From the IMG/VR virus record IMGVR_UViG_3300032307_000731, positions 32,001 through 96,000 of that record: 64,000 nucleotides of DNA; one strand, 5' to 3'. The position numbers were made by a program, and so were the translations under genes. Each line of letters begins with the position of its first letter. The stretch's first letter is position 1. Shown piece by piece: positions 4,958 through 15,959 of the stretch. The notes beneath the pieces are model-generated. The model worked only from the letters and a program-made list of their open reading frames with translations, made no database searches and was not told where the DNA came from. Source of the DNA: a virus.

Positions 4958-5524
4958 ATGCCAAATTGTTATCAATATCAAATAACCAATTATAATAATA
5001 TTCAAGAAGGATATTATAGATGGACAGGTTGTACAGGAATTGTAAGTGTTTCACAAGTAAATCCTTTACAGACCGATTATGTTTGTGCTGATGAATTAGT
5101 TCAAGAAGAATATGGAGCTCCTTTAACAATAAATAATATTGGATTATGTCCATCGAACACACCAACACCTTCAATAACCCCATCGGTAACTCCTACTGTG
5201 AGTTTAACACCAACTCCGGTTACTCAAACCCCAACACCAACTAATACCGCAACACCATCAAATACGCCTCAACCAATATATGTTCAAAATTTAAGAACAG
5301 GTGGTTGGTATCAAAATGTCTGTGAATCGGTAAATTCATTTGCAAATCCTGCAAATGTCACAATATATTCAACAAAACCTTTCGGTCAACTTAATGTAGG
5401 TGACCATGTTTATGGTAATAGAATATTAACAATACCTCCGGTTAATGCTAGTTTTACAATATCGGATGGTGCAAAATTTATACAAATATCAGGAACATTA
5501 ATCATAAATGAAGGTGTTTGTTAA
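4958..5524 (+). CDS. Thr/Pro-repeat (mucin-like) putative virion protein
   Basis: Cys-containing N and C domains flanking a TPTPSITPSVTPT...TPSNTP linker. Confidence 0.75.
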   Translation: MPNCYQYQITNYNNIQEGYYRWTGCTGIVSVSQVNPLQTDYVCADELVQEEYGAPLTINNIGLCPSNTPTPSITPSVTPTVSLTPTPVTQTPTPTNTATPSNTPQPIYVQNLRTGGWYQNVCESVNSFANPANVTIYSTKPFGQLNVGDHVYGNRILTIPPVNASFTISDGAKFIQISGTLIINEGVC

Positions 5525-5562
5525 AAAAAAAATAAAATAAGAAAAATTGAGTATTTATTAGT

Positions 5563-13429: not shown

Positions 13430-14293
13430 ATGGAAAACAAAACATTATTTATAACTTGTTTTTATAACGGGTTAGATAATACGATTTTAGGAGGTCGTGT
13501 TGGTAGAATACATCATTACATAAATTCACTAAAAACTTTACTTAATTTAGAATCTGATTTTGTAATTTATACCTCAGAAGAGGATAAGAACGAACTTGAA
13601 AAACATATTGATTTTACTAAGTATAAATCAAATGTTAGGTTAATTGTTTATGATTTATTTTCACATCCAAACCATGAATATTTTCAAAAAATGTTGAATG
13701 GAAATAAAAACGATAGATGTCATGAAATAATGCATAATAAGACTTCATGGATTAAAAATCATATGTCTGAAGATTATGATTTTTATTATTGGATTGATTG
13801 TGGATTATCTCATGGTGGGTTATTTCCAAGAAGATATAGAAGTGGTGATTCTTTCTACGATTTCTTTTCATGTACTTTATTTAACCCAACAATGGTTGAA
13901 AACTTGAATAAGGTTGAAGATAAAGTTACAATATTATATGGAGACCAATCAAAACACTTATTAGAAAGAAGAGCAAATGAAAAATTTTATCATAACATAG
14001 ATGTTGTTGAAAATTGTCATATTGTCGGAGGTATGTTTGGTGGTAAAAAAGAACTTGTTAATGATTTTTGTTTAATGTATGATGATGTTTTAAAAGAAAT
14101 GATTGAATATAATGCTTTAGATATGGAAGAGGCTTTATATACAATAATATATCAAAGAAATAAAAATAACTTTAATAAATTAATATTCACTACGTGGCAC
14201 CATGAGGATAGTGATATGGCAAAATATAACTTTGATAATGAGATATATTTTTATAAAATTTTTGAAAAATTAAATAACATAATTGATGAATAA
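13430..14293 (+). CDS. HtrL/YibB (WlaTC)-like glycosyltransferase
   Basis: LFITCFY, YYWIDCG, IVGGMFGG, DMEEALY. Confidence 0.6.
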   Translation: MENKTLFITCFYNGLDNTILGGRVGRIHHYINSLKTLLNLESDFVIYTSEEDKNELEKHIDFTKYKSNVRLIVYDLFSHPNHEYFQKMLNGNKNDRCHEIMHNKTSWIKNHMSEDYDFYYWIDCGLSHGGLFPRRYRSGDSFYDFFSCTLFNPTMVENLNKVEDKVTILYGDQSKHLLERRANEKFYHNIDVVENCHIVGGMFGGKKELVNDFCLMYDDVLKEMIEYNALDMEEALYTIIYQRNKNNFNKLIFTTWHHEDSDMAKYNFDNEIYFYKIFEKLNNIIDE

Positions 14294-15959
14294 TATAACG
14301 TTAGTAACAGGAATATGGGATATTGGTAGGGAAGGTTTAACCGAAGGATGGTCAAGGTCATACCAACATTATTTAGATAAATTTGAACAACTTTTAGATG
14401 TTCAAGAAAATATGATAATTTTTGGAGACGCAGAACTTAAAGATTTTGTTTTTAAAAAAAGAAATGAATCAAATACTCAATTTATTGAAAGACCTTTAAA
14501 ATGGTTTACCGATTCTGAATTTTTTCCATTAATTCAAAATATTAGAACAAACCCTGACTGGTACAATCAAGTTGGGTGGTTAAAAGATTCTACTCAGGCT
14601 AGATTAGAAAACTATAATCCATTGGTAATGTCAAAAGTTTTTCTTTTACACGACGCAAAAATATTTGATAAATTTGATTCAGAATATATGTTTTGGATTG
14701 ATGGGGGTTTAACCAACACAGTTCATCCGGGTTATTTTACTCATGATAAAGTTCTTGATAAACTTTCTAAATATATTTCAAAATTTTCATTTATAAGTTT
14801 CCCTTATGGTGCTGAAAGTGAAATACATGGTTTTGAGTATAATAAATTAAATTCATTAGCCGGAGATAAAGTTACTAAAGTTTCAAGAGGTGGGTTTTTT
14901 GGGGGTCCTAAAAACACAATAACCGATATTAATGGTGTTTATTATGGATTATTAAAATCCACATTATCGGACGGTTATATGGGAACTGAAGAATCTATCT
15001 TCAGCGTAATGGCTCACAAACACTCAGATTTGATTAATTATTTTGAAATTGATTCTAATGGGTTAGTTGGTAAGTTTTTTGAAGATTTAAAAAATGATAC
15101 CTTAGTCCCAAAGAATGAATCGAAAGTTAGTGTTGAAAATAATTTGGACATAAATAAAGTAGGTTTATATGTTTTAACTTTCAATAGTCCAAAACAATTT
15201 AAAACATTAATTGATTCAATGATGGCTTATGACCAAGATTATTTACTAAAAACTACTAAATTTTTATTAGATAATTCAACAGATGATTCAACTTATGATG
15301 AATATTCTAAATTATGTAATGAATATAATTTCACTCACATTAAAAAAGATAATTTAGGAATTTGCGGTGGAAGGCAATTTATTGCGGAACATTTTAATGA
15401 CACCGATTTAGATTATTATTTATTTTTTGAAGATGATATGTTTTTCTTCCCAAATGAAGGTATTGTGTGTCGAAATGGATTTAATCGATATGTACCAAAT
15501 TTATATTCAAAATCATTGGAGATAATTAAAACAGAAGATTTTGATTTTATCAAATTAAATTATTCTGAATTTTATGGTGATAATGGAACTCAATGGTCTT
15601 GGTATAATGTACCTCAATCGGTAAGAGAAGAATTTTGGCCTGAAAAACCAAGATTACCTGAAATGGGGTTAGACCCTAACGCACCAAAAACTGTTTACAA
15701 TAAAGTAGTATCTTATAAAGGTTTACCTTACGTTAGTGGTGAAGTTTATTATTGTAATTGGCCTCAAATTGTTAGTAGACCCGGAAATAAAAAAATGTTT
15801 TTAGATACCACATGGGCACATCCATTTGAACAAACATGGATGAGTCATATGTATCAATTAACTAAAAAAGGTGAATTGTCATCAGGATTATTACTTTTAA
15901 CACCAACCGAACACGATAGATTCGAGCATTATGATAGAGATTTGAGAAAAGAGTCATAA
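14283..15959 (+). CDS. bifunctional glycosyltransferase (HtrL-like N-terminus + GT2-like C-terminus)
   Basis: TLVTGIWDIGR, FWIDGG, GGFFGG, GTEESIF; then LYVLTFN, LLDNS, NLGICGGR, FFEDD. Confidence 0.65.
   Translation: MMNNITLVTGIWDIGREGLTEGWSRSYQHYLDKFEQLLDVQENMIIFGDAELKDFVFKKRNESNTQFIERPLKWFTDSEFFPLIQNIRTNPDWYNQVGWLKDSTQARLENYNPLVMSKVFLLHDAKIFDKFDSEYMFWIDGGLTNTVHPGYFTHDKVLDKLSKYISKFSFISFPYGAESEIHGFEYNKLNSLAGDKVTKVSRGGFFGGPKNTITDINGVYYGLLKSTLSDGYMGTEESIFSVMAHKHSDLINYFEIDSNGLVGKFFEDLKNDTLVPKNESKVSVENNLDINKVGLYVLTFNSPKQFKTLIDSMMAYDQDYLLKTTKFLLDNSTDDSTYDEYSKLCNEYNFTHIKKDNLGICGGRQFIAEHFNDTDLDYYLFFEDDMFFFPNEGIVCRNGFNRYVPNLYSKSLEIIKTEDFDFIKLNYSEFYGDNGTQWSWYNVPQSVREEFWPEKPRLPEMGLDPNAPKTVYNKVVSYKGLPYVSGEVYYCNWPQIVSRPGNKKMFLDTTWAHPFEQTWMSHMYQLTKKGELSSGLLLLTPTEHDRFEHYDRDLRKES

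Follow-up and report, generated by a model that had tools for sequence, protein, structure and literature searches.

A cluster of glycosyltransferase (GT) genes led by a GT60-family enzyme is described here in a 64,000-nucleotide stretch of viral DNA (the window), which corresponds to bases 32001-96000 of the 115-kb IMG/VR viral contig IMGVR_UViG_3300032307_000731. Positions refer to the window, and its genes named below lie on the plus strand. Six tightly packed same-strand open reading frames (ORFs), from 9619 to 15959, stand downstream of three consecutive genes for proteins with long Thr/Pro tracts. Across relatives the GT60 enzyme is paired with a 558-amino-acid (aa) protein, and the pair accompanies a variable cassette of genes; membrane segments and lipid-carrier enzymes were not found, and the GT60 gene is associated with Thr/Pro-rich (TP-rich) ORFs. 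We propose that a soluble, GT60-led pathway O-glycosylates the Thr/Pro linker tracts of phage proteins, a reading to which we give about even chances. The window also encodes a tail sheath and baseplate wedge, a family B DNA polymerase (PolB), and a ribonucleotide reductase, and close relatives of its phage (31% GC) reach 309-321 kb, one of them with direct terminal repeats; the contig, for which CheckV gives a completeness of 38%, therefore represents part of a jumbo myovirus genome of approximately 300 kb.

The first enzyme of the cluster (9619..10884) belongs by sequence to the GT60 family. It matches the Pfam profile PF11397 ("GlcNAc") with an E value of 5.8e-65 and a score of 220.5 bits (cut-off 21) over profile positions 2-43 and 92-349 of 352, and matches phrog_24687, labeled "glycosyltransferase" in PHROG, with an E value of 2e-164. 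In an alignment of 44 family sequences, the motifs ASYRD, GVCWAR, QIDSHMRF, and HGEEI, on which the original prediction had based a GT60-like enzyme, lie on invariant or nearly invariant columns, and this part of the prediction is borne out by the profile search as well. D92 and H94 of QIDSHMRF (the DSH motif) and H229 are invariant in the 44 diverse homologues, and the conserved columns include E204/E205; from what is known of GT27, we take D92, H94, and H229 to be metal ligands. The family alignment also shows an extra conserved C-terminal region of approximately 120 aa. Pfam gives PF11397 only, with no ricin or GT2/GT27 model, so that the enzyme is not placed in GT27. Searches by sequence found no solved structural relative in the PDB for the enzyme alone or for the GT60 profile. 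Characterized GT60 enzymes are polypeptide α-N-acetylglucosamine (α-GlcNAc) transferases, the acceptors of which are Ser/Thr-rich mucin domains or the hydroxyproline of Skp1 (PMC8724618); the present enzyme is the proposed initiating enzyme of the cluster. Giant proteins of 1,300-2,460 aa (P0012-P0016, P0021, and P0030) that carry two to four tandem GT60 domains each were also observed.

The three genes upstream of the GT60 gene encode TP188 (4958..5524, 188 aa), TP669 (5563..7572, 669 aa), and TP634 (7639..9543, 634 aa). TP188 has a TPS/TPT linker between two small Cys-bearing modules, TP669 has five small modules with long ([10 protein letters not shown])n tracts between them, and TP634 has five small modules (two of module A and two of module B among them) separated by TP/TQ tracts; TP669 and TP634 are the candidate acceptors. 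The modules are bracketed by Cys residues, are 60-82 aa long, and alternate with repeats of the kinds (TPTNTE)n, (TPTQ)n, and (TQ)n, and long [13 protein letters not shown] tracts are visible in all three translations. Thr and Pro together make up 23% of TP188, 39% of TP669, and 37% of TP634, against 5-17% in the other ORFs of the contig, with the single exception of an 855-aa (V/L/E/D)VP-repeat protein (34%). At the DNA level, Tandem Repeats Finder reports a 30-bp unit in 4.3 copies at 100% identity (5787-5915), a 60-bp unit in 2.9 copies at 94%, and a 381-bp unit in 2.0 copies at 84%. Translation, composition, and DNA repeats thus confirm the three consecutive genes with long Thr/Pro tracts that had been predicted. 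Related genomes encode further members of these module families in dispersed TP-rich proteins; module A was found in 93 ORFs, among them three loci of the 321-kb relative (G001). The copy of module A at 8161-8409 (83 aa, in TP634) is predicted with a pLDDT (predicted local distance difference test) value of 91.8 to be a small α/β unit. Foldseek against the PDB returned no solved look-alike of this model at E <= 0.001 (best VIA Z 4.0), and its many matches in BFVD are uncharacterized aquatic phage proteins only, some of them fused to XkdF/ClpP-type prohead protease domains; the modeled fold therefore yields no functional clue. The architecture of the repeat proteins, together with the structural-gene neighborhoods of TP-rich ORFs in the cultured phage XacN1 and in the complete relative G003, is the reason why we place these proteins, conditionally, in the virion.

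The association between GT60 and TP-rich ORFs was examined in relatives. GT60 relatives in IMG/VR numbered 365, the best 80 of which (84-98% identical) are called close loci here; with 150 further loci gathered via two more divergent GT60 representatives, dereplication at 90% identity gave 91 viral GT60 loci. In these, a TP-rich ORF occupies position -1 relative to GT60 in 22/88 cases, position -2 in 15/86, and position -3 in 14/82, versus 1-5% at each downstream position from +1 to +10. The enrichment extends to loci in which GT60 is less than 80% identical to that of the window (17/80 at -1). Fourteen of the 22 TP-rich ORFs at -1 have no BLAST-detectable globular module in common with the proteins of the window, which argues against simple inherited synteny, with the reservation that BLAST would miss remote homology. 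Complete relatives encode 9 (G001), 11 (G003), and 6 (G004) TP-rich ORFs. XacN1 encodes about 18, and ORF232-237, ORF325, ORF350, ORF369-372, and ORF384 have TP tracts; six of the 18 form a tandem set of paralogues, and others neighbor genes for baseplate-wedge, sheath-completion, and head-completion proteins. Sites coding for TPTPTP number 19 in G001, 13 in G003, 29 in XacN1, 26 in Xoo-sp13, and 19 in RAS14, which are GT60-positive jumbo genomes of approximately three lineages, and 0 in each of the GT60-negative jumbo genomes RaK2, Atu_ph07, phiKZ, G, and SCTP-2; the reversed pattern, used as a control, gave 0-1 matches. Conversely, PF11397 was present in 9 of 42 viral contigs chosen solely by a (TP)5-coding repeat, although most of these contigs are fragments and the figure has no IMG/VR-wide frequency of GT60 to be set against.

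The order of genes in the close clade is fixed: the gene for a 708-aa protein, one to six TP-rich genes, GT60, one to ten variable genes, the gene for the 558-aa protein, the gene for a 125-aa protein, and PolB. In 61 of the 91 dereplicated loci, the 558-aa protein has a full-length homologue encoded no more than eight genes from GT60, either just upstream of it or downstream with the cassette intervening. The cassette between the two genes comprises 139 proteins in 47 families. Those sampled include GT10 fucosyltransferases, GT25, GT34/DUF273 proteins fused to methyltransferases, PLOD-like GTs, RMNT_CmcI-type sugar methyltransferases, and NodU/CmcH-type carbamoyltransferases. The interior genes of the window, three in number, are rare: each was found in 5-9 of the 80 close loci. 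Hundreds of jumbo-phage contigs contain the pair itself, as do cultured Xanthomonas and Stenotrophomonas phages. In XacN1, consecutive genes encode a GT60 enzyme (ORF334, 45% identity), a carbamoyltransferase (ORF333), an HtrL-like protein (ORF332), ORF331, and ORF330, the last of which is 41.5% identical to the 558-aa protein over its full length. Because the pair is retained while the cassette varies across relatives and XacN1, the gene content indicates that the conserved unit is GT60 plus the 558-aa HtrL+GT-A-like protein, bordering an exchangeable and putatively glycan-tailoring cassette. The hypervariable cassette and the varying number and length of the repeat genes suggest that an exposed structure is under diversifying selection.

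The conserved partner (14283..15959) consists of an N-terminal HtrL_YibB domain and a C-terminal GT-A-like region, as judged from Pfam and alignment. Its match to HtrL_YibB (PF09612) has an E value of 3e-16 and a score of 60.1 bits (cut-off 24.1). In the C-terminal half, N331, D334, and E383-D384-D385 (the EDD motif) are invariant, and residues 334-395 match weakly phrog_842, "beta-glucosyl-HMC-alpha-glucosyltransferase" (E 8e-5). A profile-profile comparison of its family with GT60 by hhalign found no link. The remaining four genes of the cluster are more loosely assigned. The gene at 10892..11842 is GT-B-like, with language-model neighbors of the Glyco_trans_1_2/GT90-like kind (0.97; 9/80 close loci); that at 11844..12782 is fucosyltransferase-like, with NodZ/O-FucT/FUT8 neighbors (0.94; 8/80 close loci); and that at 12779..13420 encodes a 213-aa protein with a conserved RDAD (DxD-like) motif (5/80 close loci). 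None of these three interior ORFs (10892-13420) has a family in Pfam, NCBIfam, or PHROG. The family of the 213-aa protein has no Pfam model, counts 300 members in which RDAD is conserved, and includes two members labeled by JGI as "protein O-GlcNAc transferase." Its single-sequence AlphaFold model had a pLDDT of 38 and was not used, and the family profiles of the 213-aa and 558-aa proteins found no solved relative in the PDB. The gene at 13430..14293 encodes an HtrL/YibB-like protein that scores 16 bits, under the Pfam cut-off, and is 27.5% identical to XacN1 ORF332. It is plausible that this gene and the three interior genes encode GTs. Of the six GT-like genes of the original prediction, therefore, two pass family thresholds (GT60 and HtrL_YibB), and the other four stand as leads.

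In the twelve proteins encoded between 2214 and 16353, no hydrophobic segment was found (maximum Kyte-Doolittle mean over 19 residues, at most 1.42), which agrees with the predicted lack of a membrane anchor in the GTs and repeat proteins. The GT genes look like a soluble set that would build a glycan stepwise, without lipid-carrier machinery. Upstream of the repeat genes lie those for the 708-aa Cys-rich protein (2214..4340), which ends in a TPTPTPTPT tract, has no Pfam or PHROG family, and has a homologue in 47/80 close loci as a conserved neighbor, and for a 193-aa protein (4374..4955), which is variable in relatives (5/80 close loci) and matches weakly BclA_C, a C1q/TNF-like fiber tip (PF18573; E 2.8e-4, 21.2 bits versus a cut-off of 38). 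The GT module is followed by the conserved 125-aa protein (15976..16353), which ends in Cys-Cys, has no family match, and is found in 73/80 close loci, and by PolB (16449..19175; Pfam), which apparently shares one terminator-bounded stretch with the GT genes. A terminator-like hairpin with a 10-bp stem followed by a T-run lies on the plus strand at 9566..9591, between the repeat genes and GT60, where it is kept in most close-clade representatives only, and the sequence contains another after PolB (19177-19200). A single operon for the repeat and GT genes was considered and rejected because of the first hairpin; the GT genes run on into PolB.

Bacterial homologues of the GT60 enzyme were observed in two settings. 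In Cupriavidus sp. OV096 (L317:2840-12127), a homologue that is 42-46% identical over the catalytic domain lies within a type VI secretion system (T6SS) cluster, with TssF, TssA, a fimbrial/MrkD-like protein, and ClpV as neighbors, and the same layout is found in four further loci of Cupriavidus and related Burkholderiales (L319, L324, L329, and L343). This suggests that the Cupriavidus-type enzyme may glycosylate a T6SS component or effector. In Sphingobacterium zeae (L314:1505-12084), the homologue lies beside a radical-SAM enzyme, a C39-peptidase ABC exporter, and a TonB-type outer-membrane protein, and the locus looks like a cluster for a glycosylated ribosomal peptide. A location in polysaccharide loci was rejected after a Pfam scan of the Cupriavidus and Sphingobacterium neighbors; both settings suggest protein or peptide acceptors rather than polysaccharides.

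In the mechanism that we propose, the genes from 9619 to 15959 would constitute a soluble, cytoplasmic pathway of stepwise protein O-glycosylation. The GT60 enzyme would place the first N-acetylhexosamine, most likely α-GlcNAc from UDP-GlcNAc, on Thr hydroxyls of linkers like those of TP669 and TP634; the 558-aa protein may contribute a common next step; and the cassette enzymes would then extend or decorate the glycan. In the window, the GT-B-like, fucosyltransferase-like, DxD, and HtrL-like genes would add fucose and other sugars, and the GT10, GT25, GT34, and PLOD-like GTs, sugar O-methyltransferases, and carbamoyltransferases of relatives would add methyl and carbamoyl groups as well. GDP-fucose could be supplied by the phage itself, from gmd and fcl-like genes: gmd (E 6e-119), an fcl-like reductase gene, a GT11-like gene, and several GT2/GT1 genes are located 12-25 kb upstream on the contig. 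The terminator-bounded stretch with PolB is probably the source of these enzymes, whose synthesis could thus precede or accompany that of the late proteins. The predicted outcome is stiff, protease-resistant, and antigenically variable "bottle-brush" linkers between the globular modules of fiber or decoration proteins. What we infer, rather than observe, comprises the acceptor and the sugar, the sequence of the steps, the placement of the repeat proteins in the virion, and the biological role. In its broadest form, the scheme may be a widespread jumbo-phage system of true mucin-type O-glycosylation in the bacterial cytoplasm, with GT60 initiating on the Thr/Pro repeat linkers of many virion proteins, an HtrL-type enzyme providing the core step, and an exchanged "serotype" cassette diversifying the coat; this broader form is possible, and we hold it a little more tentatively than the pathway itself.

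Several points weigh against glycosylated Thr/Pro linkers, and most of them would fit an alternative in which the module glycosylates other proteins, either structural ones such as those of capsid and sheath, for which chloroviruses and mycobacteriophages provide precedents, or those of the host as it is being taken over, while the tracts are plain flexible linkers and the nearness of GT60 is an inherited gene order. A TP-rich ORF is absent within six genes in approximately 60% of the more distant GT60 loci, and some loci, e.g., L104 and L133, have fiber-like proteins without TP tracts (1395-aa and 353-aa ORFs) adjoining GT60. In G003 and G004, the TP-rich proteins are encoded in a block of very large ORFs approximately 60-120 kb from GT60. 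Five complete small phages have (TP)5 tracts and no GT60; such linkers therefore do not need GT60. The few lineages behind the GT60-positive genomes leave room for a lineage effect on the genome-level association. With the hairpin between them, the repeat and GT genes are probably not one transcription unit, and as the GT genes share a terminator-bounded stretch with PolB, their timing may differ from that of the late structural genes. The glycan on the repeat proteins is itself a prediction; Pfam and PHROGs contain no virion-protein family for the repeat proteins or their 708-aa and 193-aa neighbors; HtrL_YibB is a putative GT, the profile of which finds no solved relative; and the glycoprotein bands seen in XacN1 virions (see below) are not assigned to particular proteins. 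The predicted co-occurrence of GT60 and TP-repeat genes in relatives accordingly holds as an enrichment at -1 to -3 and as the perfect split between five positive and five negative genomes, and does not hold as a rule for the distant loci. That enrichment, with non-homologous globular parts, and that split nonetheless speak against targets elsewhere, and Thr-rich mucin-like tracts are known GT60 acceptors (PMC8724618). We therefore regard modification of other proteins as rather unlikely, though it is the alternative to which we give the most weight.

Hypermodification of DNA would explain why the GT genes lie directly upstream of PolB: the GTs would be expressed with the replication genes and would glycosylate a hydroxylated base for nuclease protection, as in T-even phages and RB69. 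The module of XacN1 is likewise near PolB and RNase H, the weak phrog_842 match of the 558-aa protein points in the same direction, and diversifying glycans on DNA are known (PMC13326640). On the other hand, a ThyA-family gene (PF00303) is absent from G003 and G004, two complete genomes with GT60, which makes DNA glycosylation unlikely, and the ThyA homologues of G001, XacN1, and RAS14 retain the PCH and Asn (PFN/PYN) motifs of ordinary dUMP-binding thymidylate synthases. A search with Tet_JBP (PF12851) gave no match, with its control also silent. Since, in addition, the characterized GT60 enzymes all act on proteins and XacN1 virions contain glycoproteins, we consider a DNA target improbable. 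Remodeling of a host envelope glycan (lipopolysaccharide [LPS], capsule, S-layer, or type IX secretion glycoprotein) or synthesis of a free oligosaccharide, for superinfection exclusion or control of release, is slightly more improbable again. It is recommended by the HtrL/YibB genes in bacterial LPS-core and lipooligosaccharide loci, htrL being listed in Acinetobacter OC loci (PMC4172580), by GT25, GT9-like, and GT11-like genes typical of LPS pathways, and by a cassette variability reminiscent of O-antigen loci. Against these likenesses, no match to a phosphoglycosyl transferase (PF02397) or flippase (PF01943) was found in five genomes, four of them complete, in which the controls were detected; all proteins of the module are soluble, the phage is a large lytic-type myovirus, and the bacterial GT60 homologues examined lie outside polysaccharide loci. 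With regard to thymidylate synthase, the homologue of the 321-kb relative (G001:C1:157173-158267, 364 aa) is a canonical ThyA but has two insertions of approximately 40-50 aa.

The principle of phage virion glycosylation is not new, and the description of this locus as an undescribed system was too strong. Schiff staining of purified XacN1 virions revealed two or more glycoprotein bands (PMC5852040, Suppl. Fig. S4), and Yoshikawa et al. proposed in 2018 that the GTs ORF328 and ORF334 are their source (PMC5852040); mycobacteriophages, too, are reported to encode O-glycosylation of their virions (Freeman 2023, as cited in PMC12619734). XacN1 shares with the phage of the window the same module and many TP-rich ORFs, its Schiff-stained virion proteins having been ascribed to phage GTs, whereas the phage of the window is uncultured, has a low GC content, and carries another cassette. 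The GT60 family and ORF330-333 went unrecognized in the XacN1 paper, as did the repeat proteins and any acceptor (PMC5852040). As far as the citing article relates, mycobacteriophages use phage GTs and methyltransferases to decorate their own virion proteins in the host cytoplasm, with the glycan as a surface shield, as proposed here. By the same account they are small siphoviruses whose capsid and tail-tube subunits accept the glycans on C-terminal extensions, whereas the candidate acceptors of the window are internal Thr/Pro linkers of modular jumbo-myovirus proteins, and the initiating family and the layout of a pair plus cassette differ as well. What appears to be new is the recognition of GT60 in the proposed role of initiating enzyme, the layout of conserved partner and cassette across hundreds of jumbo phages, the statistical tie between GT60 and Thr/Pro-repeat proteins, and the protein-linked contexts of the bacterial homologues. 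Literature searches on GT60 in phages and on mucin-like glycoproteins of phages brought up no relevant paper.

The eukaryotic GT60 polypeptide α-GlcNAc transferases (the pp-αGlcNAcT enzymes of Dictyostelium and Trypanosoma cruzi, and Skp1 Gnt1) share with the enzyme of the window PF11397, the DxH motif, and the downstream invariant His. Thr/Pro-rich mucin-like repeats are acceptors of the pp-αGlcNAcT enzymes and are the candidate acceptors in the window, and Skp1 Gnt1 is soluble and cytoplasmic, as is predicted for the phage enzyme. The latter differs in its phage/bacterial origin, in the extra C-terminal region, and in having no membrane anchor, and the eukaryotic pathways are without the HtrL+GT-A-like partner. 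The animal GT27 polypeptide GalNAc-transferases offer an analogy in their related GT-A logic (DxH) and in dense initiation on Thr/Pro sequences that other GTs extend; in the phage enzyme no ricin-type lectin domain was found, the setting is not the Golgi apparatus, and the sugar is probably GlcNAc rather than GalNAc. The chlorovirus PBCV-1 and mimivirus likewise combine virus-encoded nucleotide-sugar synthesis (gmd and fcl-like genes in the present phage) with many soluble GTs, and they place unusual methylated and fucosylated glycans on their own structural proteins outside the secretory pathway, as may happen here by analogy. They are giant viruses of eukaryotes, the PBCV-1 glycans are N-linked to the capsid protein, and the likeness of the pathways is offered as an analogy.

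If the proposed pathway is correct, hundreds of environmental jumbo phages would coat modular surface proteins with self-made, strain-variable glycans, as would cultured biocontrol candidates against Xanthomonas and Stenotrophomonas, with effects on adsorption, stability, recognition by grazers or immune systems, and the proteomic detectability of the coated proteins. Cassette exchange would amount to an O-antigen-like variation displayed on the virus particle. The large prokaryotic GT60 family (>4,000 sequence clusters) would receive its first proposed function, and its prokaryotic and phage members, including those of the T6SS loci and of the loci resembling clusters for ribosomally synthesized and post-translationally modified peptides, would be protein glycosyltransferases related to the eukaryotic mucin-initiating enzymes, with a bearing on the origin of mucin-type initiation in eukaryotes. 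A soluble route to mucin-like glycoproteins in the bacterial cytoplasm would also be useful in glyco-engineering. XacN1, as a cultured phage in which glycoprotein bands have already been seen, permits a direct test.

The best cellular look-alikes of the GT60 gene of the window are 61-69% identical and lie on contigs binned to metagenome-assembled genomes of Saprospiraceae/Bacteroidia, one of these contigs being 230 kb long; because of this hint, which falls short of proof, the host of the phage is probably a member of the Bacteroidota. Two further features were observed on the contig outside the window. A second glycosylation cluster, located upstream at G000:C1:15615-28708 (= L275:1615-14708), consists of gmd, an fcl-like epimerase/reductase gene, a GT11-like gene, three GT2-type genes, and one GT1-type gene, with unannotated ORFs interspersed. 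Beyond the window on the minus strand (G000:C1:109970-112537), the 855-aa protein mentioned above comprises approximately 270 (V/L/E/D)VP tripeptide repeats and a short non-repeat tail.

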